A DNA stretch of 64,000 bases from Candidatus Bathyarchaeia archaeon (GCA_035283685.1 DATETJ010000003.1:842-64841); one strand, 5' to 3'. Numbered from the stretch's first letter, positions 10,965 through 50,367 are shown. A program made the numbers and translations. The notes: generated from the sequence alone by a model not told the origin.

Positions 10965-11056
10965 TGGAGCCCCGGGCGGGATTCGAACCCGCGACCTACA
11001 GCTTTCTTGAGCCTATGTATACAAGGCTATTGCTCTACCGGCTGAGCTACCGAGGC
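10965..11056 (-). tRNA. tRNA-Thr(TGT) with a 16-nt canonical (37/38) intron
   Basis: The reverse complement reads GCCTCGG-TA-GCTCAGCCGGTAGAGC-A-ATAGC-CTTGTA[TACATAGGCTCAAGAA]A-GCTGT-AGGTC-GCGGGTTCGAATCCCGC-CCGGGGC-T-CCA. A CTTG/CAAG 4-bp helix flanked by 3-nt bulges gives a BHB. Confidence 0.85.
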
Positions 11057-39536: not shown

Positions 39537-39875
39537 TTACATTCTTCGGGGCGGATGAGCCAGAGCGTAACGCCACTTTGCAGCATCCCTAGCCATCAAG
39601 AACCCTCTCGACGTCAGCCTGTATCTCGCCAACTCTTGGCTCTCCACGGGGCTTGTGGCTCTAATGGCACCAGAAACCACCAAATGGTGCAGATACTTGT
39701 TTACTTGGTCAAGGCTTAGGTTGGCGTCTCGCATGATGCGGGTTTTAGTTTTTCCTTTAGGGTCACTGTTTATCGAATCAAAAATATCGCTGATAATGCT
39801 GGTTCTATCCCGATACTTGAAGCCTGAGAGAAGCATCTTTCCAAAGAGCCAGTTAAAAGTTGAGCAGGCGTACAT
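39537..39875 (-). CDS. winged-helix DNA-binding protein
   Basis: DRTSIISDIFDSINSDPKGKTKTRIMRDANLSLDQVNKYLHHLVVSGAI resembles small archaeal wHTH regulators. The start is uncertain. Confidence 0.5.
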   Translation of the reverse strand: MYACSTFNWLFGKMLLSGFKYRDRTSIISDIFDSINSDPKGKTKTRIMRDANLSLDQVNKYLHHLVVSGAIRATSPVESQELARYRLTSRGFLMARDAAKWRYALAHPPRRM

Positions 39876-40252: not shown

Positions 40253-41434
40253 ATGAGTGCTCAAGAGTTTCTGGATTACATTGCGAAAAGCAAGGCCAAG
40301 AACACTAACAAGTCCTATCGGAATGCTGTCAGAAAATTTGCAGAGTGGTATAAAGGCACGTACTCGGTTGAGCAGCTAAATGAGATTCTGCAAGAGAGAA
40401 AAGACTCAATGCAGGGCAAGGGTCCCCAAGAAAAACGAAGATTCGAAAGGCTAGTCGAGGAATGGCACAGAACACAGCTCAACAGCGGGGCCAGCATCAA
40501 CTCCGCAAGAAACCGCTACGTTGCTGTAACACAGTTTTTCAAGTTCTTTGATCTAGACCTGAACACAGCTGTTATCCCGAGCGAGGTAAAGAAAACCATG
40601 ATCTCAGAGAAAGATTATCCGCTTACGGTTGAAGACCTCAGGGCGATGCATAAAGTTGCTGACCTTCGGGGCAGAACCATTCTGCTTATGGCAAAAGATC
40701 TGGGACAGCGCCTTAGCGACTTCAAAATGATCAAGGTTGAACAGCTGCCGAACTTGGACTCTGAACCGCCAATTCCGTTCAGCATCGAAACGGGTAAAGA
40801 GCATGTTCAGACGAAGGGCTTCTTGTCCGCAGAGACCGTTCAAGCTCTAAAAACCTATCTCGAGACACTACGGAAGAGAAAGAAGCCTTCCCCGTTTCTT
40901 TGGCCGTCGAATGGAAAACACCCGCTTGATGAGGACAGCTTTGGAGTATGGCTGAAGAATTTGGCTGAAAAGGCTGGAATCAAGACCGGTAATCAGAAGT
41001 TGACTTTTCACTGTTTCAGACGTTTGCTCATGCGGGCCGCTATCGAAACAGGCGTTGGCTTAACAGCGGCCAAATTGATGGTTGGAAAAGCTGTTGAAAA
41101 AAGTGACGAAACATACATTGCGAAAGCTAGGCTGGATAAGGTATTCACAAAACTCAGCAAATACCTCAACGTAACGGGTACAGTCGAAGAGAGAAAACCA
41201 CTGCAAGACTTGATAGTTCAACAAGAGAAAGAAATATCGAGCCTCCGGAAACGTATCGAGGCAATTGTGGAGCAAATAAAGGAATACGAAGAGACCTTTG
41301 ATTCAGTTGTAAGAGAATTCGCAACTCTGATTTTGGTGCTTGCTGAACGACTTGGTGATGAAACAACGCTCCGAATGCTGCATGAGGCAAAAGAAAGGCT
41401 TGACCAGAAACTTGTGGAGAAAGTGCAAGAGTGA
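40253..41434 (+). CDS. tyrosine recombinase/integrase with a ~100-aa C-terminal coiled-coil extension
   Basis: N-terminal SAM-like domain (NTNKSYRNAVRKFAEWY). Catalytic pattern: Arg in DLGQRLSDF, HxxR in FHCFRRLL, and Tyr in SDETYIAKA. A heptad-rich tail follows (QEKEISSLRKRIEAIVEQIKEYEE...). Confidence 0.8.
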   Translation: MSAQEFLDYIAKSKAKNTNKSYRNAVRKFAEWYKGTYSVEQLNEILQERKDSMQGKGPQEKRRFERLVEEWHRTQLNSGASINSARNRYVAVTQFFKFFDLDLNTAVIPSEVKKTMISEKDYPLTVEDLRAMHKVADLRGRTILLMAKDLGQRLSDFKMIKVEQLPNLDSEPPIPFSIETGKEHVQTKGFLSAETVQALKTYLETLRKRKKPSPFLWPSNGKHPLDEDSFGVWLKNLAEKAGIKTGNQKLTFHCFRRLLMRAAIETGVGLTAAKLMVGKAVEKSDETYIAKARLDKVFTKLSKYLNVTGTVEERKPLQDLIVQQEKEISSLRKRIEAIVEQIKEYEETFDSVVREFATLILVLAERLGDETTLRMLHEAKERLDQKLVEKVQE

Positions 41435-41578: not shown

Positions 41579-42007
41579 GTGGGAGTGATTGGAAACGTGA
41601 CGCTTGAGATGACTTGCGAATGGTCGGAAAAGGGTGCCAGCGTCTTAGACTTGGATATGCGCTATTCAAATGTGGAATGGGGCGGCCTAGTCAAAGACTG
41701 CTACCAGCTGACACTCACCAGTTTTGGCGCCACAAAAGAGCGCATCAACCAGATTAAGCAACTCCAAGTCTACGATAATATAGTCTTGGGCAGCCCGTGT
41801 ATGCTACCGTTCAAAGACGAATGCTTTGATCTGGTCTTTGCTATGAACGCGGCTTTGCCATCTGACACAAAAGGCACATGGGCCATGATAAATGAGTGCA
41901 GGCGGGTTGCGATAGAAAAATACTATGCGCGGTCTCCATACCCATCGCTTGCAGTCATCGTCGGCTTCGTCAAAACAAGAAAATGCAGGATAATTTCAAT
42001 ATCATAG
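41579..42007 (+). pseudogene. possible SAM-methyltransferase remnant
   Basis: GTG-start ORF with LGSPCMLPFKDECFDLVFAMNA (post-motif II/III-like) but no intact GxGxG. The upstream frames are broken. Confidence 0.25.
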
Positions 42008-42533
42008 ACGAACGAGATGACGGTTAGGGACATGCATGGTATTGAGATGGGAGTGGCGAAGCCATCGCCACAACGTACAGGAAGATGAAGCTGCATGAAT
42101 TTCAGAGATTCACTAGATAGAGTTTTGGACAAATTGCTTTGTGGGAATTGCGGACCAGAATATGAAAGAATCGCAGGCCTATTCTGCCCTATGTGGTGCT
42201 ATCGGCGACGATTCAGAAATGAGATGTATTGGGCTCTTCATTTGAACGTGATTGTAGCGTTTCTCCTAAGATTCTGAATTCTGGGAGATGAACAAAGCTC
42301 TTCTTAGCTAGCTATGTTAATGCTAGCGCTCGTGCATGCGGTTCTCTGCTGGAGTCATCTAGCCGGAGTTACGAATGAAGGTCAAGTCTACTGTCGCAAA
42401 CACGGAGGCACGTGGATTCAAGGTCTGAAATGCTACAGTTGCCCAGATAATCAGCTTCGCAAGAAAGGAGGCGGTAAAGAGGTCCATTAGAGATGGTGCG
42501 GGCTCAGGGGTGGATTAGCTCGCGCTTAGCACA

Positions 42534-42542
42534 ACTTATAAG
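42534..42542 (+). promoter_or_regulatory. TATA box ACTTATAAG upstream of hsdR
   Basis: The same 9-mer as at 45334-45342. It lies about 30 nt upstream of ATG 42569. Confidence 0.5.
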
Positions 42543-42568
42543 ATCATAAGAGTTCTATCGTTTACTTA

Positions 42569-45307
42569 ATGTCAAACGAGGAATTCTCAGGTTCAATGGG
42601 CGAAAAACGCACCAGAGAAAAATACATTGATCCTGAGATATCGAAGAGAAAATGGATTCCAAAATACGTTGAAGAAGAAGTCAATTCCGTCAAGTCCGAT
42701 TTTGTCGACAAAAAACTTGTGTTCTATGATGGCCACCCTGAGAAAGGTGTTGACAGATTCATAGACTATGTATTGCTCGATGAAGATTATTCGGTTTTAG
42801 CCATCATCGAAGCAAAAGATTTTTCCAAAAATGAGGAAAAGGGACGAATTCAAGCTAGAACATACGCAAAAGACATTGAAAAACAAACCACTAAGAAAGT
42901 GCCTATTTTTCTTACGAATGGCAAAATCTGGCGTTTCATTGATGAAGATGGAATAGAGCGCAAGGTCAGTGGTGTCTTTAGTCAAGAGGATCTCAGGCGA
43001 AGAGGAGATCTCTATGGCAAAAAGAGAAATCCATCTGACGCAAAATTTGAATCACGGATAATTGATCGATCTAAGAACAGATACTTGGTTCAGAAGTTAA
43101 GTGAACACTTCTCAGAAGGACATAGAAAAGCTCTTGTTGAGATGGCCACGGGCACTGGGAAAACAAGAGTTGCGATGGCGATTATTGATCGCCTTATAAA
43201 TTCCAATATGGTTCGAAACGCTTTGTTCATTGCCGATCGAACTGCTCTTGTGAACCAGGCAGAATCAAGCGGATTTCAACAGTTTTTTACCGAGCCAGTT
43301 GTAGATCTTCGTAAGGGTTTTTCTACTACTGGGAGATTGTATGTTTCCACAGTGCAAACACTGATGAGTGGCAAGCCAAGGCTAGCTGAACAGTTTAGTC
43401 CTGGTTTTTTTGACATAATTGTTTTTGATGAAGCTCATAGATCCTATTATGACAAGAATAATTTCATTGACGAATATTTCGATGCCATCAAAATAGGACT
43501 TACTGCCACACCTAGAGAACACGAAACAAAAAACACTTACGACCTATTTGGGTGTGAGCAAGGTAAGCCAACAGTAGAGTATTCCTATGATGAAGCCATT
43601 ATCGACAAGATTCTAGTTCCGTACAAAGCGGAAATAATAGACACTGAGAGATTGTCTCTCGGCATCAAAGGCTCGACATTGACGGAAGCTTTGAAGGATC
43701 AACTCAGACGGCAGGAAGTCAATCCAGAGCAAGCCGAATATGCTGGTTCAGATTTTGATCGGGTGTTCATGGACGACAAGACCAATGAAGTGATAATTAG
43801 AGAATTTATGAATAGTTGTTACAAATCTGATGAAGGCAAGCCTTGTAAATCTATATTCTTTTGTGCGAGTCAGAGACACGCCCAACACATGAAAAGAATC
43901 TTTGGAATCATTGTTCCGAATCTCAGCAATGACGTTCAGGTTATTACGTCTGAAATGTATCGGGCAGACGATGAGGTAAAACGGTTTGGCTTAACATCTG
44001 AGCCAAGGATTGCTTTGTCTGTTGGCATGCTAGATACGGGCATAGATGTTCCAGAAGTGTGCAACCTAGTCTTCGTTAAGCCAGTTTTTTCCCATATCCG
44101 GTTCTGGCAAATGGTAGGAAGAGGAACAAGAAACCGAGAAGCCTGTAAGCATCCTATTTGGTTGCCGAATAGAGAGAAGAATGATTTTCTAATTCTTGAT
44201 TTCAAGATAGGAGGGCATTCTAATGTCTATTATCATCAGTTCGAAGAAACAAAAGAAAAATCCGCTGCTAAAGATGTTATTACTCGGATATTCGAAAACA
44301 GAGTGAAACTCTTACAAAAATCCCTTGATGAAGATCAAAAGAAAATCATCTCAAACAAGATTATAGCATCTATAGACGAGTTGGATAAAGAATCCTTCAT
44401 TCTGCGGGAGAAACTGCCAACACTTGAAAAAATAAAAGGAGAATCATTTAATCTCCAGAATTATGTCAATGAACTAATGAGAGAGATAGCACCTCTAATG
44501 ATCTTTAATCAGGGCAGGAATGCGAATATTTCCTCTTTCATACTTCAGACAGAAAAACTGTTTGGCTATGTTTTAGACAGAAAGAAAGACCTGATAGAAA
44601 ACGTCAGACACTATGTTCAGGAGATGTGCGAGAATATTCTCCGAAAAGATAATCTAACGGAAATAAGGAAAAACAGAGACATTATAATACGTGTACTGCA
44701 AGAGGATTTCTGGGAAGACCTAACATTCAATGACGTTGAGTTCTTAGTGGTACAAATCGCACCATTAATGAAATATTATGAACCAGAGCCAACGAAAATC
44801 GTCCAGGTGGATGCTCCTGACATTGTCTTGCTCAGAGAAAAATACCTAATGGAAATCAAGGAAGATGAAGAGTTGAAGAAATTCCTGAACGTAAATCCTA
44901 TTATCAGGAAGATTCGTGATGGTGAAGGAATAACGCCACCTGAATTGGCGGAATTGGAGTTCGAGCTGTCTTCATTGAGACCTGGTCTCACAGTTGATAA
45001 TGTTCAAAAGTATCAGAATATTGATTTTCTGTCGTTTCTGCATAAAATAATGGGTCTTACAGAGAAATCCGATCCAAAAGAACTAATCGAATATGAGTTT
45101 GACCAATATGTCCTTGCCAAAACAGAATACAATTCTAAGCAATTGGCATTTCTAGCCGTGTTGAAAAAGGTCTTTGCCAATAGAAAACGCATCGGACTCC
45201 CGGATCTGGCAAATCCACCTTTATCCAATGAGCGTCCTCTTGATTTTTTCAAGATAGAGGAATTGAAACTCATTATTGAAAAATGTAATCGAATCAAGAT
45301 GCGATAA
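42569..45307 (+). CDS. hsdR: Type I restriction enzyme R subunit (COG4096/EcoEI-like)
   Basis: N-terminal PD-(D/E)xK (IDYVLLDEDYSVLAIIEAKD). SF2 motifs MATGTGKTRVAM, FDEAHRS and LTATP. C-terminal EcoEI-R-like tail. Confidence 0.85.
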   Translation: MSNEEFSGSMGEKRTREKYIDPEISKRKWIPKYVEEEVNSVKSDFVDKKLVFYDGHPEKGVDRFIDYVLLDEDYSVLAIIEAKDFSKNEEKGRIQARTYAKDIEKQTTKKVPIFLTNGKIWRFIDEDGIERKVSGVFSQEDLRRRGDLYGKKRNPSDAKFESRIIDRSKNRYLVQKLSEHFSEGHRKALVEMATGTGKTRVAMAIIDRLINSNMVRNALFIADRTALVNQAESSGFQQFFTEPVVDLRKGFSTTGRLYVSTVQTLMSGKPRLAEQFSPGFFDIIVFDEAHRSYYDKNNFIDEYFDAIKIGLTATPREHETKNTYDLFGCEQGKPTVEYSYDEAIIDKILVPYKAEIIDTERLSLGIKGSTLTEALKDQLRRQEVNPEQAEYAGSDFDRVFMDDKTNEVIIREFMNSCYKSDEGKPCKSIFFCASQRHAQHMKRIFGIIVPNLSNDVQVITSEMYRADDEVKRFGLTSEPRIALSVGMLDTGIDVPEVCNLVFVKPVFSHIRFWQMVGRGTRNREACKHPIWLPNREKNDFLILDFKIGGHSNVYYHQFEETKEKSAAKDVITRIFENRVKLLQKSLDEDQKKIISNKIIASIDELDKESFILREKLPTLEKIKGESFNLQNYVNELMREIAPLMIFNQGRNANISSFILQTEKLFGYVLDRKKDLIENVRHYVQEMCENILRKDNLTEIRKNRDIIIRVLQEDFWEDLTFNDVEFLVVQIAPLMKYYEPEPTKIVQVDAPDIVLLREKYLMEIKEDEELKKFLNVNPIIRKIRDGEGITPPELAELEFELSSLRPGLTVDNVQKYQNIDFLSFLHKIMGLTEKSDPKELIEYEFDQYVLAKTEYNSKQLAFLAVLKKVFANRKRIGLPDLANPPLSNERPLDFFKIEELKLIIEKCNRIKMR

Positions 45308-45308
45308 T

Positions 45309-45330
45309 TATGTAAACCTTGGTTTACATA
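45309..45330. promoter_or_regulatory. perfect 10-bp inverted repeat (putative operator)
   Basis: TATGTAAACC-tt-GGTTTACATA, sitting 3 nt upstream of TATA ACTTATAAG (45334-45342) and about 36 nt upstream of the RHH gene ATG. Confidence 0.5.
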
Positions 45331-45365
45331 AATACTTATAAGTTGAGCTGCACTTAGGCTTACGC

Positions 45366-45743
45366 ATGGAATATCGAACAGTCTCTGCTAAACTTCCGAG
45401 TAATGAACTTACCTTATTCAGAGCACATTGTGAAAAGAAGGGGGTGTCTCCAGCTTACCTGATCAGGGAGTTAATCCTGAAAGAAATGAGAATCACAGTT
45501 CCACATGCGGTCGCAGGCAGAAACATAATCAATTACGATAGAAACAAAGATTCCTTTACATGGTCCGTTGAACTTGACACTGGAAAAACTGTCGAGGTTC
45601 TGAGAAACGTTTCACCAGTTTTTGTTGAAAATCTGAATGACATTATCACACTCGGCATGGGAGAAAGAACGTCTTTTCTTCGAAAGAAGAGAGAAGATTC
45701 TGTCCCTGTTCCAAGTAATATTCTAAGGAGAAAAAGACAATGA
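45366..45743 (+). CDS. ribbon-helix-helix (CopG/Arc-like) protein embedded in the R-M locus
   Basis: VSAKLPSNELTLFRAHCEKKGVSPAYLIRELILKEM follows the beta-alpha-alpha RHH pattern. Its stop overlaps the hsdS start (ATGA). Confidence 0.6.
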   Translation: MEYRTVSAKLPSNELTLFRAHCEKKGVSPAYLIRELILKEMRITVPHAVAGRNIINYDRNKDSFTWSVELDTGKTVEVLRNVSPVFVENLNDIITLGMGERTSFLRKKREDSVPVPSNILRRKRQ

Positions 45744-46930
45744 AACTGCCAAACGGGGGGCAAGAGGTAAAGATCCAAGAAATTGCAAGGGTTGATTCAG
45801 GTCAAGGAGCCCCACAAGGCGAAGAATGGTACGTTGGAAATGAAGTCTTCGTGAAAGCAGGTGATCTGAATTCTCTAACTGAAGGTAAATACGTGGGAGA
45901 GCACTGCAAAAGGGTGAACGATAACGCAGTTACCCAGTACAAGTTAAGAAAATATCCTAAGAACTCTATAGTATTTCCAAAGAGTGGAATGTCTGTTAAA
46001 ACTGACAATATTGCACTACTGAAATATGACTCATATGTAGTCAATCATCTTGCGATAATACAGGTGAACGGCAATGATGAAGATCTGGTAAAATATCTTT
46101 ACTATTCACTGAAAGAGGCCAAAATATCGAAACTATCCCTAAATGATAGCTACCCGTCAATTAGACTTAGCGACATAAAGAGATACAGGGTTGTTATTCC
46201 ACCTCATCCTCAATTGAGAAAAATGGTTGCAATTCTTGAAAGGGCAGATCAACTGAAACAATGGAGAAAGGAATCTGATAAGTTATCTGAGGATTATCCC
46301 AATAGTGTTTTCTTGGAGATGTTTGGAGATCCAAAGAACAATCCAAAACACTGGGATGTTATCAAGATTAACGATGCCATTGAATATTCCCAGTATGGGA
46401 CCTCAGTCAAATCTAATTCAGATGGAAGAGGTTATCCAGTTGTTGGAATGGGCAACATTACATATGATGGTCGTCTTGATCTTTCAAATCACTCTTATGT
46501 AGAACTACCAAGGGAAGAATTCGAGAAACTAAAACTCCACAAGGATGATGTAATTTTCAATAGGACAAATTCCACTGAACTAGTTGGCAAAACTGCATGT
46601 TGGGATATGGATCTTGACGCAGTCCTGGCGTCTTATCTTGTGAAGCTGAAACTAAGAGAGAACATAAACCCTGTATTCTTTACACACTTGCTGAATACCC
46701 GATTCTTCAAGCAACTATTCTCTATACGCTGTAGAAAGGCCGTAAACCAGTCAAATATCAGTCCAACTCTCTTGAAGAAATTCAGTATGTATTTGCCCCC
46801 TGTTGAGCTTCAGAACAAGTTTGCTTCCACAGCCAACCAAGTTGAACAAATGAGAGCTCATCAAAGAAAATCACAAAAACAGATTGATAACCTATTCAAT
46901 GCTTTGGTGCAAAAAGTGTTTAGAGGTTAG
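45740..46930 (+). CDS. hsdS: Type I R-M specificity subunit
   Basis: Two target-recognition halves are separated by conserved helical spacers (LRKMVAILERADQLKQ...; LQNKFASTANQVEQMRAHQRKSQKQIDNLFNALVQKVF). Confidence 0.85.
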   Translation: MKLPNGGQEVKIQEIARVDSGQGAPQGEEWYVGNEVFVKAGDLNSLTEGKYVGEHCKRVNDNAVTQYKLRKYPKNSIVFPKSGMSVKTDNIALLKYDSYVVNHLAIIQVNGNDEDLVKYLYYSLKEAKISKLSLNDSYPSIRLSDIKRYRVVIPPHPQLRKMVAILERADQLKQWRKESDKLSEDYPNSVFLEMFGDPKNNPKHWDVIKINDAIEYSQYGTSVKSNSDGRGYPVVGMGNITYDGRLDLSNHSYVELPREEFEKLKLHKDDVIFNRTNSTELVGKTACWDMDLDAVLASYLVKLKLRENINPVFFTHLLNTRFFKQLFSIRCRKAVNQSNISPTLLKKFSMYLPPVELQNKFASTANQVEQMRAHQRKSQKQIDNLFNALVQKVFRG

Positions 46931-46935
46931 TTAGC

Positions 46936-48423
46936 ATGCTAGATACAGAACTGAAATCGAAAATAAACCAATTATGGGATAAATTTTGGAGCGGAGGAAT
47001 ATCGGATCCTCTTGTTGCCATTACTCAGATGTCGTATCTGATTTTCATGAGGAGACTGGAAGATGAAGATATCGGCAGGGAACAAAATGCTCAACTAAGC
47101 GGAGAGCATTATGAATCCGTCTTCAAGGTTAATGATGATTGCAGGTGGTCGGAATGGACGAATCTTCCTTCTAACCAAATCTTAGACCATGTTAGAGACA
47201 AAGTGTTTCCATTCCTTAGAACACTTGGTGGAGAAGACTCCCTATATGCTCAATATATGAAACATGCTGTGTTCACTATCCCAACGCCTTCCCTTCTTAT
47301 TGAAGCTGTGAAAATAATCAATGATATGCATATCAAGGAACAAAACAGGGATGCAAAAGGAGATCTATACGAATATCTACTTTCAGAATTGAAAACCGCC
47401 GGAAAAAACGGGCAGTTCAGAACACCGAGACACATAATAAAGATGATGGTTTCCCTAGTAGATCCAGAGATCGGCGATAGTATTTGCGATCCTGCTTGTG
47501 GAACTGCGGGTTTCTTGATTGTTGCTTATGAACATATCCTGAGAAATAACACTTCAAAGGAATTCATCAAAACAGATGAGTTAGGAAACGAATACGGGTC
47601 TAAAGGAGATAAACTGGAAAAAAGACAGTGGAATCTGCTGTTAGAACATACTTTCTATGGATATGATTTTGACACGACAATGCTAAGAATATCACTTATG
47701 AACATGATGATGCATGGAATTGAAAGACCTAACATAAGAGAACAGAACACGCTTTCCAGTAGATATAACCAAGAAAAGAATCGCTATGACGTAGTTTTGG
47801 CGAATCCACCATTCAAGGGAAGTATCAACGAATCGGAGATTAGTAGAGAATTTTCAATCACAACTAAGAAGACAGAGATTCTTTTCCTTGAACTGATGTA
47901 CAACATCCTCTCAGGTGGCGGAAGATGTGCAGTTATTGTGCCAGACGGAGTGTTATTCGGTAATTCTAGAGCACACAAAAAGATTAAGGGAAAATTACTT
48001 GAGGAATGTCGCATGGATGCAGTCATATCAATGCCTTCAGGCGTATTCAAACCCTATGCAGGGGTATCTACGGCGGTTCTAGTCTTTACAAAAGGAGAAC
48101 CCACTAAGAGAGTGTGGTTCTATGATATGAAAGCTGACGGCTACAGTCTTGATGATAAGAGAACTTTCCTAGACGGAAAGGGCGATATTCCCGATATATT
48201 GAGTAAATTCAGCAAAAGAGATCTCGAGCGATTCGAAGATAGAAAAGCCAGCTGCTTCTTTGTTCCCATTGAAGAAATAAAGGAAAATGGTTATGACCTA
48301 AGCGTTTCAAGATACAGAGAACTTGAGTACGAAGAAGTTGTCTACGAAAACCCTGAAGTAATCAAACAGAAAATTCTAGAGCTGGAAAACAAGATTGTTG
48401 AAACCTTACGAACCATTTCTTGA
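46936..48423 (+). CDS. hsdM: Type I R-M N6-adenine DNA methyltransferase subunit
   Basis: FRTPRHI, DPACGTAGFL (motif I) and LANPPFKG (motif IV). Confidence 0.9.
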   Translation: MLDTELKSKINQLWDKFWSGGISDPLVAITQMSYLIFMRRLEDEDIGREQNAQLSGEHYESVFKVNDDCRWSEWTNLPSNQILDHVRDKVFPFLRTLGGEDSLYAQYMKHAVFTIPTPSLLIEAVKIINDMHIKEQNRDAKGDLYEYLLSELKTAGKNGQFRTPRHIIKMMVSLVDPEIGDSICDPACGTAGFLIVAYEHILRNNTSKEFIKTDELGNEYGSKGDKLEKRQWNLLLEHTFYGYDFDTTMLRISLMNMMMHGIERPNIREQNTLSSRYNQEKNRYDVVLANPPFKGSINESEISREFSITTKKTEILFLELMYNILSGGGRCAVIVPDGVLFGNSRAHKKIKGKLLEECRMDAVISMPSGVFKPYAGVSTAVLVFTKGEPTKRVWFYDMKADGYSLDDKRTFLDGKGDIPDILSKFSKRDLERFEDRKASCFFVPIEEIKENGYDLSVSRYRELEYEEVVYENPEVIKQKILELENKIVETLRTIS

Positions 48424-48623
48424 GCAGTCTCGGGCGCATTTCCCATTGACCTTATGATTTAAGGAATAAGCACTTTCTTGTTTGTGGCTTGGTCCTGCTG
48501 TTACGCCTGTTGGCTTCATCGAAGGCTCGATTTGCCCAGTCACCCCAGCTTTCACTATTTCCTGGCAAAGATTCTCGAATTGCTGATTTTGTCAAGTCTT
48601 TCGACCTGGATTATTGAAAGCAA

Positions 48624-49346
48624 TCATATATCTCTGACATGTTTAAAATCTATACAATTTTTATGATAGTAACTATTTATGGTCGACTTTATTGCGGGAG
48701 AACTTGTCAAAATATGAACTGAATCAGAAGTGCAGAATATCGTACTATCATACCCAGTTGCCCATAAAACTGCATCAGCAACAATTTGTCTATCGTCCTC
48801 GTCTTCGATGCAGACAAGCGAGTCAATAAAGCCTTGATCTTTTGATATGGGTATAAGAGGTTTCTGCGTTTTTGTCTCCAAGACAGCACCTATTTTGGAT
48901 TCTACTTCTCTTCTGGTTGCACGATATTCACTTACAATAACTTCTTCATTTCGTGTTATCACGATTTCAAGGAACTGTTTAATGAAAATCCCTTGGTTTT
49001 CATTATACCCTTGAAACATGGCTTCACGGAATTTTCTAAGGTCTTTTATTTTGTTCCTGCTTAGCACAATGTTCAAGTCTCTGCCAAATTCGGACATAAA
49101 GCTCTTGAAATTCTCAATTTCTGAAATAACACTTTCGCTTGTGTGCCTCATGTGAGATGCATTGAAAATGCGAACGCAATCATTATGAAAAAAATCAAAG
49201 TGCACACCATAATTGATATAGACGCATGTGTCAAGAAAGCAAATCCTACTTGCAGGGTTTTTTGTAGGATTTCCAGACATTCGAAATTGTCCCCAAAAAG
49301 TCTTCTTCTTTCCCGTAGACTGTTCTGAAAAATTGCGACCTTTCAT
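48624..49346 (-). CDS. PIN-like nuclease domain protein (putative toxin)
   Basis: Acidic quartet pattern: CFLDTCVYI, SESVISEIE, DEDDRQIVADAVLWA and IFCTSDSVHIL. An alternative start at 49280 gives MSGNPTK. Confidence 0.5.
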   Translation of the reverse strand: MKGRNFSEQSTGKKKTFWGQFRMSGNPTKNPASRICFLDTCVYINYGVHFDFFHNDCVRIFNASHMRHTSESVISEIENFKSFMSEFGRDLNIVLSRNKIKDLRKFREAMFQGYNENQGIFIKQFLEIVITRNEEVIVSEYRATRREVESKIGAVLETKTQKPLIPISKDQGFIDSLVCIEDEDDRQIVADAVLWATGYDSTIFCTSDSVHILTSSPAIKSTINSYYHKNCIDFKHVRDI

Positions 49347-50367
49347 GAGGCGTTAGCAGCAACCCATTTTTTGCGAGCGTCTCATACAAGCTATCCAAGC
49401 AATTGCTAATCCATGAATCCGCATTTGAAAGAATAGCCTCTTGTTTTTTTCTTACTTTATCTGCGCATACGCCTGTTAAGGTTTTCAATGAAATCTTAAG
49501 AGCAATGGGTTTCCAGACTGCTTTTTCATACATGTCCTTCAAGAGCTTCAAGCAATTCAAAAACCATGCTCTCTCAAGATCCACTTTAACCAGATAATCC
49601 TCTAACAAATCGATATATCGATTAGTATAATCATAAAAACATGAAAAATCTGACGAATCAGCAATTTCAAGAACTAACCTAGAAAGGTTTTTTGCGAAGT
49701 GTCTGTAATGGCTAAATTCATTTGTTTCTAGACTGAATTTCAGAAGTGTCTGTTGAATAATGCCTTTTGTTTTGGGTTCAAATTTCTTGACTAACTCGAA
49801 ATTTCTTTCTATTGCGAGGTTGTTGTAGTAGAGCGGCTTATACTTTTCAGGTGCTCTTGTTCGGTAGAATTCCTCAAGAAAGGTGTTGAGCTTTGTATAA
49901 AAGATCTTTCTAACAGTTTCATCCATGATTCTCGAATATTTCGATTGTACGGGAGCGAATAATTTCTCTGCGTTCTTAATTTGGTCGCAAGTTGGTTCTG
50001 ATGAGAAGGTCATCTCATTTATTGGGATTGTAGTATCTGCGTTATGAACATACCCACCATAGAGATACCAGCTTCTTGTTAGGGGTATATCAAGTTCCTC
50101 AGCAACAATGAAAATTATTTTTTGCAGTTTCACTCTATTTTGAGAAAAATCTTGCTGAGAACTTGTATGTAAAATCCTCAAAATATCCCTCAGGATCATT
50201 TTAATTATAGCTGCCTCATCCTGAGGTTCTATTTTCAAAGCTGCCACCAAAATTCTTACTTGACTTATATGGATACTATATAAAAGAGTTTTCTGAAGTG
50301 CAAATACGTCTCTGGGCAAAGAGCAAAACCATATCTGAGACCTTGATGTTGCGATGATAAAGTACAA
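49246..50367 (-). CDS. hypothetical protein with a Panacea/DUF4065-like N-terminal region (putative antitoxin/sensor)
   Basis: RVKLQKIIFIVAEELDIPLTRSWYLYGGYVH resembles the KLQKLLY...GP core of SocA/Panacea domains. The remaining ~250 aa are unassigned and the start is uncertain. Confidence 0.4.
   Translation of the reverse strand: MYFIIATSRSQIWFCSLPRDVFALQKTLLYSIHISQVRILVAALKIEPQDEAAIIKMILRDILRILHTSSQQDFSQNRVKLQKIIFIVAEELDIPLTRSWYLYGGYVHNADTTIPINEMTFSSEPTCDQIKNAEKLFAPVQSKYSRIMDETVRKIFYTKLNTFLEEFYRTRAPEKYKPLYYNNLAIERNFELVKKFEPKTKGIIQQTLLKFSLETNEFSHYRHFAKNLSRLVLEIADSSDFSCFYDYTNRYIDLLEDYLVKVDLERAWFLNCLKLLKDMYEKAVWKPIALKISLKTLTGVCADKVRKKQEAILSNADSWISNCLDSLYETLAKNGLLLTPHERSQFFRTVYGKEEDFLGTISNVWKSYKKPCK

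Follow-up and report, generated by a model that had tools for sequence, protein, structure and literature searches.

A Type I restriction-modification locus with a small gene between hsdR and hsdS

The stretch of DNA analysed here (the window: 64,000 nucleotides (nt) from a Candidatus Bathyarchaeia archaeon, GCA_035283685.1 DATETJ010000003.1:842-64841) carries a Type I restriction-modification (R-M) locus in which a small gene, here called X, lies between the restriction gene hsdR and the specificity gene hsdS and is preceded by an operator-like inverted repeat placed directly against its promoter (Table 1). Reading of the open reading frames (ORFs) gives the order hsdR, X, hsdS, hsdM, with all four genes co-directional on the + strand. 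A first-pass annotation of the window had placed an ORF between hsdR and hsdS with its stop overlapping the hsdS ATG, and reading of the sequence confirms both points, the stop of X and the start of hsdS sharing an ATGA (45740-45743). An AGGAG lies 10 nt upstream of the hsdS start and a GAGGT precedes hsdM, which follows 5 nt after hsdS, whereas the sequence read upstream of hsdR and of X holds no AGGAG/GAGGT-type motif. This Shine-Dalgarno pattern would fit leaderless first genes (hsdR and X) followed by Shine-Dalgarno-led internal genes.

The three hsd products are readily assigned. HsdR matches ResIII (4.6e-33), SWI2_SNF2 and EcoEI_R_C (3.7e-09) in Pfam and REase_I in PADLOC (2.5e-105), and it matches the NCBIfam model restrict_EcoAI at a score under the equivalog cut-off. 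HsdS matches Pfam Methylase_S in two stretches, as is appropriate for a subunit with two target-recognition domains, and HsdM matches N6_Mtase (2.4e-66) and HsdM_N (6.6e-15). Judged by these domain matches, which cover HsdR, HsdS and HsdM alike, the system is Type I, with an EcoAI/Type IB-like HsdR that ends in an EcoEI_R_C tail.

Table 1. Features of the hsdR-X-hsdS-hsdM locus, in window coordinates. RHH, ribbon-helix-helix; BRE, transcription factor B recognition element; aa, amino acids.
Feature	Position	Strand	Sequence, domains or basis
hsdR TATA-box region	42534..42542	+	ACTTATAAG; core TTATAA at 42536-42541
hsdR, Type I restriction subunit, 912 aa	42569..45307	+	Pfam, NCBIfam, PADLOC
Operator-like element	45308..45331	strand-neutral	GTAAAC at 45312-45317 and GTTTAC at 45322-45327, inside 11-bp inverted arms
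BRE-like A-rich tract, directly 3' of hexamer 2	45328..45333	+	ATAAAT; anchored alignment, family consensus A.AAAA
X-promoter TATA box	45334..45343	+	ACTTATAAGT; core TTATAA at 45336-45341
Gene X, 125 aa	45366..45743	+	RHH-like N-terminal module (~2-40) and C-terminal beta-beta-beta-alpha domain (~45-110)
hsdS, specificity subunit, 396 aa	45740..46930	+	Pfam Methylase_S
hsdM, methyltransferase subunit, 495 aa	46936..48423	+	Pfam N6_Mtase, HsdM_N

X accompanies Type I genes across distant archaeal groups

Sixty-four loci were retrieved through X, 25 from species-representative genomes and 39 from metagenomes. In 61 of the 64, X is preceded by a relative of hsdR (46-90% identity), the remaining three being too short upstream, and it is followed by hsdS and hsdM (HsdM 67-84% identity) in every locus whose contig extends that far, with the exception of one (L060) where two other ORFs follow X before the contig ends. 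Sampling in the reverse direction gave the same picture: three loci picked from HsdM homologues regardless of X all hold a gene of 124-128 aa between hsdR and hsdS, which sequence comparison confirms as X in two, one of these being the complete genome of the cultured Methanobacterium paludis (CP002772.1, X at about 760731-761108). The first-pass annotation had named beforehand the absence of the ORF from related R-M loci as grounds for giving up its interpretation; in related loci the ORF is conserved beside hsdS and hsdM. Two remote relatives of X (L067 1417-1830 and L068 622-1065; 137 and 147 aa; ~29% identity; profile E-values of 6e-10 and 3e-7) lie in Type I loci ordered hsdR-X-hsdM-hsdS, so that X leads the modification and specificity unit in at least two Type I lineages.

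The hosts of the module include Bathyarchaeia, Methanosarcinales, Methanoperedenaceae, Methanobacteriales (Methanovirga), Nanoarchaeota, Woesearchaeota and Nanohaloarchaea. Given hosts in such distant archaeal groups the module appears self-contained, and a cis-encoded factor acting on it is more plausible than a shared host factor. Two contigs binned as bacterial (L009, a Flavobacteriaceae metagenome-assembled genome (MAG), and L025, an Anaerolineales MAG) carry the same archaeal-style BRE/TATA promoter and operator; their DNA is probably archaeal and was placed in the wrong bin, so that neither would be a true bacterial case.

Roughly 30 of the 64 loci share the compact layout of the window, with an hsdR-X gap of 57-112 nt and, where the contig continues, an hsdS-hsdM gap of ~9 nt. 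The others, more than half, contain 0.2-6.7 kb of variable cargo at the hsdR-X, X-hsdS or hsdS-hsdM junction. Cargo families include SLFN_AlbA_2/HATPase_c_4 (with a helix-turn-helix (HTH) in addition), DUF3800, PIN_3 (weak), Fic, Bro-N, SWIM, Peptidase_C39, TIR/SEFIR and PDDEXK_3, and the R-X-S-M scaffold constitutes a hot spot at which defence-type genes insert. X is a marker of a Type I scaffold that in archaea receives many additional defence genes, presumably under common control.

A conserved pair of hexamers abuts the X promoter

The perfect palindrome first reported upstream of X is present and slightly longer than described, its arms (TTATGTAAACC / GGTTTACATAA, separated by the 2-nt spacer tt) being 11 bp rather than 10 and extending to 14 nt if one mismatch is allowed. 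Its conserved part is a pair of hexamers. A perfect GTNNAC-N4-GTNNAC occurs in 51 of 56 distinct X upstream regions. It begins between -60 and -51 relative to the X start codon in 50 regions and at -74 in one (L016, where the gene start is uncertain); the other five regions have 1-2 base differences or an N3 spacer. In a motif-anchored alignment the GT and AC columns show no variation (2 bits), the spacer and the cores of the hexamers are partly free and the flanks fall to near 0 bits. Right after hexamer 2 comes an A-rich tract (A.AAAA, +16 to +21; 1.2-1.8 bits with one free position), followed by the TATA consensus TTWWAWA at +24 to +30 (centre ~+27), a stretch of ~10 positions carrying ~0-0.2 bits and the X ATG at +53 to +57. 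The centre of the TATA core in this window lies ~27 nt before the ATG of X and ~30 nt before that of hsdR. From the TATA-ATG spacing, the start site of X would fall at or beside the ATG, and the A-tract, positioned just upstream of the TATA box (-38 to -33), would be the BRE. The hexamers would then occupy about -54 to -39 of the X promoter, with the proximal hexamer at about -44 to -39.

The site remains with X when 0.2-6.7 kb of cargo parts X from hsdR, and there is usually one GTNNAC-N4-GTNNAC per locus. In the 64-kb window the pattern occurs once, at the X site; because 39 of 100 shuffled sequences contained at least one match, this single occurrence is not significant alone, and the significance of the pattern derives from its conservation across loci. 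Upstream of the remote relatives there are two GTCTAC hexamers 21 bp apart in one case and GTATAC with GTATCC in the other; each has a TATA box 5-6 nt downstream of its proximal hexamer. The initial reading of the palindrome as an operator-like element is therefore retained, the element being conserved and fixed to the X promoter rather than to the end of hsdR.

The two hexamers are inverted relative to each other in most loci (GTCAAC/GTTGAC, GTAAAC/GTTTAC, GTCTAC/GTAGAC), direct in five (GTAGAC/GTAGAC in four and GTCAAC/GTCAAC in one) and mixed in others. The window repeat itself folds (10-bp stem, -8.6 kcal/mol, z = -2.1), and folding is not conserved among the loci. Since direct and mixed pairs cannot form a stem, a hairpin is excluded in those loci and the site appears to be read by a protein. 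What is kept, GT..AC twice at a 10-bp period, would fit two two-fold-symmetric dimers bound to one face of the DNA.

A second, conserved palindrome, GTTGTCGAC-ATTTT-GTCGACAAC, lies in the hsdS-hsdM gap of three Methanosarcinales-type loci (L006 8712, L008 8776, L010 9539), where no TATA box follows it.

The hsdR promoter does not carry the site

An identical 9-mer had been noted before hsdR and X. In the window this is correct (ACTTATAAG precedes the two genes on the + strand at 42534-42542 and 45334-45342; 3 matches counted against 0.29 expected by chance, a count reached in 1 of 100 shuffles), but across loci only the TATA box at each place is conserved. Most of 18 related loci have a TATA box conforming to (A)ATTTATAA, placed ~25-27 nt ahead of the hsdR start codon. 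No GTNNAC-N4-GTNNAC stands beside the hsdR TATA box, and a cognate hexamer is missing from 30 of the 32 distinct hsdR promoters. The two exceptions are this window and L029, its closest relative, with a hexamer near the hsdR start. In the window it is a GTTTAC at 42559-42564, which lies 9 nt before the ATG and approximately at the expected hsdR start site. Considered as a second site for X, this GTTTAC was set aside as a chance or lineage-specific match, only 2 of the 32 loci being similar.

The proposal of two transcription units, with the operator on the S-M unit only, is upheld to the extent that each unit has a conserved TATA box at leaderless distance and that the site occurs only at X. 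Their separation is less clear: 0-27 nt separate the hsdR stop and the first hexamer in compact loci, and the window has no T-run longer than three before X and no terminator-like T-run between hsdR and X. On this arrangement R-to-M read-through transcription may occur.

X has a predicted RHH-type N-terminal module and a separate C-terminal domain

A search of 5.8 billion clusters returned 80 homologues of X at 43-99% identity, mostly of 122-128 aa and originating from archaeal metagenomes and MAGs; one Bathyarchaeia MAG matches the window at ~99% identity. When 1.84 billion representatives were searched exhaustively with a profile, the family came to 110 clusters (50% identity) of proteins ~125 aa long. 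With only this number of clusters, and with the untruncated representatives (~80) matching across nearly the whole profile, the family is small and of fixed architecture. It is also unannotated, X having no match or model in Pfam at normal thresholds, NCBIfam or PADLOC. The public NCBI call of this gene in the Bathyarchaeia MAG (P0003) is a protein of 99 aa that starts at V27 (GTG); with this start the RHH-like module loses its strand and helix A, and the putative DNA-binding part is therefore invisible in the public annotation.

Conservation in the family alignment spans both halves of the protein, with K9, E14, C22, P46, G51, N53, D62, F64, W66, D71, R101 and S112 invariant and K25-G26 and P29 nearly so. 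In the AlphaFold2 (AF2) monomer model residues 1-8 are unstructured and helices span residues 14-25 and 29-40, while the C-terminal part is built of three strands (52-58, 63-69 and 75-82) and a long helix (84-108). Modelled alone with AF2, the C-terminal domain reaches a predicted local distance difference test (pLDDT) of 93-96 in its core. Comparison of the full model and of the C-terminal-domain model with solved and viral structures gave no fold match.

The N-terminal RHH pattern put forward in the first-pass annotation fits the sequence layout of X and falls short in its scores. The sequence of X follows the strand-helix-turn-helix order of RHH proteins, with a strand (Y/F3...K9), helix A, a K-G-x-S/T-P turn and helix B. 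The strand of an RHH protein pairs only in a dimer, which would account for the low confidence of residues 1-8 in the monomer model. Against Pfam RHH_1, X matches over residues 6-39 with an E-value of 0.016 and 15.6 bits, below the cut-off of 20.5 bits. Weak matches of the same kind recur among 38 members of the X family, to DUF6290 in 19 of the 38 (best 7e-4), RepB-RCR_reg in 13 (best 4e-3) and RHH_1 in two, three families that we take to belong to one RHH clan. The upstream site also has the form of an RHH-type operator, in which short repeated sub-sites are spaced about one helical turn apart, its GTNNAC hexamers being 10 bp apart centre to centre. From the sequence pattern and the model it is plausible that the N-terminal module of X is of RHH type.

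X also shows a correlation with its site. In CopG the DNA contacts are presumably made by R4, T6 and T8, and residue 5 of X aligns with what we take to be the base-contacting Thr6; by this analogy, residues 3, 5, 7 and 9 of the X strand would face the DNA. S7 and K9 are nearly invariant or invariant in the family and residue 5 varies. X proteins with T5 are found with GTAAAC/GTTTAC, those with V5 with GTAGAC (all four) and those with S5 with GTCAAC or GTCTAC cores. Such a correlation between residue 5 and the hexamer is what recognition would predict, and we regard it as a hint of recognition.

A model for autoregulation of the modification and specificity unit

Taking these features together, we infer that X adopts an RHH fold, binds the hexamer pair and represses the leaderless transcription of its own unit. 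With moderate confidence, and chiefly from comparative sequence data, we propose that X is a dedicated RHH-type autoregulator that travels with the Type I module and is probably a repressor of the X-hsdS-hsdM unit. The RHH-type N-terminal module would dimerise and one dimer would occupy each GTNNAC hexamer, the outer GT and AC bases being two-fold symmetric. Two dimers would bind cooperatively on the same face of the DNA, one helical turn apart, with the C-terminal domain probably providing the dimer-dimer contact. X bound to the proximal hexamer, against the BRE and TATA box, would most likely hinder transcription factor B (TFB) and TATA-binding protein (TBP), leading to negative autoregulation of X, hsdS and hsdM together with any inserted cargo. 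hsdR would be transcribed from its own unregulated promoter; read-through from it into X is possible, and bound X may then form a roadblock. Overall, the circuit would give a self-limiting and host-independent supply of the methyltransferase/specificity core.

As the sign of regulation, repression is favoured with moderate confidence. The BRE and TATA box of the X promoter are near consensus and strongly conserved, so that no activator should be needed. RHH regulators, including the archaeal SvtR, typically repress their own promoters (PMC5569661), as do RHH antitoxins (PMC2812701), and RptR is an experimentally established case of a repressor in Type I loci (PMC12255303). It is because of the consensus-like core promoter and these three precedents that repression is preferred.

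Several observations weigh against this model. No RHH family reaches the Pfam cut-off for X or for any of the 38 family members. Profile searches of the PDB, made with the whole X family and with its N-terminal 45 residues, returned only noise and no RHH protein, and hhalign comparison of X with CopG and Arc was uninformative. The C-terminal domain, two thirds of X, has as modelled no fold match that would suggest a role. The correlation between residue 5 and the hexamer follows clades and represents few independent changes. Finally, the hexamers lie just upstream of the BRE and not over the TATA box or the start site.

The last point bears on the sign of control. The archaeal activators Ptr2 and, in their activating mode, SurR and TrmBL1 bind just upstream of BRE/TATA, and sites in this position are often activating. 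From the same site (~-54 to -39, adjoining the BRE on its upstream side) X could likewise activate, or activate at low occupancy and repress at high occupancy, recruiting TFB/TBP to its own promoter and setting up positive feedback on hsdS-hsdM of the kind seen in Type II C-protein switches; dual action has a precedent in the C (controller) proteins of R-M systems (PMC12707154). We consider this unlikely, since the consensus-like, conserved BRE and TATA box seemingly need no helper, the single hexamer pair differs from a C-box with its two graded sites, most characterised RHH regulators are repressors (PMC5569661) and a pure positive loop on a protective methylase would be a risky design.

Alternatively, X may act mainly at the protein level through its C-terminal domain, inhibiting HsdR or M2S in the manner of an antitoxin, helping their assembly or sensing them, with DNA binding as a secondary, autoregulatory trait like that of RHH antitoxins. 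The C-terminal domain is as conserved as the N-terminus (invariant D62, F64, W66, D71, R101 and S112) and folds confidently (core pLDDT ~93-96), X is never seen without the R, S and M genes, and an RHH module joined to a partner-binding C-terminus is typical of antitoxins (PMC2812701). However, no toxin-like small gene is adjacent, no fold match points to a partner and the domain could simply tetramerise X, which leaves this explanation distinctly improbable. A reading that combines both levels, and to which we give similarly little weight, would make X the archaeal answer to the problem of Type I establishment: the C-terminal domain would sense the state of the enzyme (e.g. free HsdR or M2S), adjust the hsdS-hsdM promoter accordingly and stop hsdR transcription from reading through, in a manner comparable to the conditional cooperativity of toxin-antitoxin systems. 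To our knowledge archaea lack ClpXP-dependent restriction alleviation, and X would on such a reading take the place that this mechanism has in bacterial Type IA/IB systems.

The notion that the palindrome is an RNA or DNA hairpin (a terminator or stabiliser of hsdR) or the site of a host factor, in either case unrelated to X, is very improbable: although the window repeat folds as described above and begins one base past the hsdR stop codon, direct-repeat and mixed variants are unable to pair, the element follows X and not hsdR when cargo intervenes, only GT..AC at a fixed 10-bp period is invariant, an Rfam scan of 42000-49000 gave no match and a host factor would need to be common to archaeal phyla that are very distant from one another, so that the comparative data largely refute the hairpin.

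Relation of X to known controllers

Regulation of Type I systems is classically post-translational, through ClpXP-mediated restriction alleviation (PMC12707154). Dedicated transcription regulators of Type I systems have been described only recently and in bacteria only, namely HsdC, a C-family HTH controller located upstream of hsdM-S-R in the Type I system MgaS6I of Mycoplasma gallisepticum (PMC9681074, PMC12707154), and RptR (whose name stands for RMS-proximal transcriptional regulator), a four-helix repressor of E. coli and other Gammaproteobacteria that acts on repeated TAGCTA palindromes (PMC12255303, 2025). The literature searched contained no report of an RHH-type or of an archaeal Type I controller.

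RptR is close to X in circuit design. Both are small regulators, X a putative one, in a Type I R-M/defence island to which they show strong genetic linkage, both are the leading gene of the transcript that is, or for X would be, regulated, both promoters contain a repeated 6-bp palindromic unit, of which RptR needs at least two copies, and in both cases cargo defence genes are embedded in the operon. In contrast, RptR is a 9-kDa all-helical HTH-like dimer from bacteria, which precedes hsdM-hsdS-...-hsdR and has its TAGCTA units over the -10 box, whereas X is archaeal, combines an RHH-like module with a beta-rich domain, has GTNNAC twice beside the BRE/TATA, follows hsdR and would control the S-M side only. 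With 125 aa, a predicted three-stranded sheet and long helix, and a GTNNAC site, X is outside the RptR family as the published description of RptR defines it. HsdC resembles X, in the role proposed here, in that its gene belongs to a Type I hsd locus and serves specifically to regulate it, through binding of the protein to the promoter of the operon itself, and differs in being a bacterial member of the HTH C-protein family.

The first-pass annotation had further cast X in the role of a C protein, and this part does not survive comparison. Type II C proteins (C.PvuII, C.AhdI, C.Esp1396I, C.Kpn2I) share with the circuit proposed for X the autogenous control of an R-M system, a small dimeric regulator, a symmetric operator in its own promoter and travel with a mobile system (PMC12707154, PMC6237814). 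They are, however, Xre-type HTH proteins with two graded operators (the C-box), usually co-transcribed with the nuclease and activating late, and X shows none of these traits. No HTH family is listed among the Pfam matches of X or its family members at E-values up to 10. There is no C-box, X having a single hexamer pair of different sequence and usually one site per locus. The C-protein gene stands ahead of the nuclease gene and is co-transcribed with it, whereas in all loci X follows hsdR and precedes hsdS/hsdM (or hsdM/hsdS), and it would be co-transcribed with S-M rather than R. X is thus outside the C-protein family, and the delayed activation of the nuclease that characterises C-protein logic does not follow from its wiring.

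A parallel in protein architecture is provided by RHH autoregulators of archaeal and bacterial mobile elements, among which are CopG of pMV158 and ORF56 of pRN1. SvtR and AvtR of archaeal viruses belong to the same group (PMC5569661). These proteins have a beta-alpha-alpha module with a G-x-S/T turn, as predicted for X, and, as proposed for X, bind short repeats cooperatively as dimers and repress their own promoters. They differ in being mostly 45-100 aa long, without the beta-beta-beta-alpha domain of X, and none is known to be linked to R-M genes; X also scores under their Pfam thresholds. Nor does X have the context of an RHH antitoxin, whose gene is translationally coupled to an adjacent small toxin gene: the gene coupled downstream of X is hsdS, and in relatives it is hsdS, hsdM or varied cargo.

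The putative X circuit has functional analogues in bacteria (RptR, HsdC and Type II C proteins), and the archaeal version is new. If the model is correct, X would be the first archaeal transcription controller of a Type I system, differing in fold and wiring from those known and heading the modification/specificity unit rather than the nuclease unit. Its compact promoter-operator cassette beside the BRE/TATA, which is independent of phylum, would provide a clean model for interference of a small regulator with archaeal initiation. Cultured hosts exist (Methanobacterium paludis and Methanosarcina sp. Mfa9), which makes the idea directly testable.

Genomic setting and further features of the window

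The R-M system lies in a low-GC block (~42-50.5 kb; 37-43% GC against 46-51% in the flanks) that is preceded by a tyrosine integrase gene (40253-41434). The system had been described as mobile, and its position in a low-GC block beside an integrase, together with close relatives in many archaeal phyla, is consistent with mobility. As an attachment (att) pair for such an island, the sole candidate was a 12-bp exact repeat, ATACTTGAAGCC, at 39813 and 51656; it was unconvincing, may be a chance repeat and was rejected.

Two convergent ORFs lie just past hsdM within the low-GC block (48624-49346 (-), 240 aa, and 49246-50367 (-), 373 aa). Neither has a match in Pfam or PADLOC, and they could be further cargo.

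A 17-nt near-repeat links hsdR (GTTGGCATGCTAGATAC, 44021-44037) with the hsdM start codon (GTTAGCATGCTAGATAC lying across it, 46930-46946) and is probably due to chance. Elsewhere in the window, ARAGORN reports a tRNA-Tyr of 92 nt with the anticodon 'ata' (10965-11056 (-)), the length and odd anticodon of which suggest an intron-containing archaeal tRNA misread by a bacterial-mode scan.

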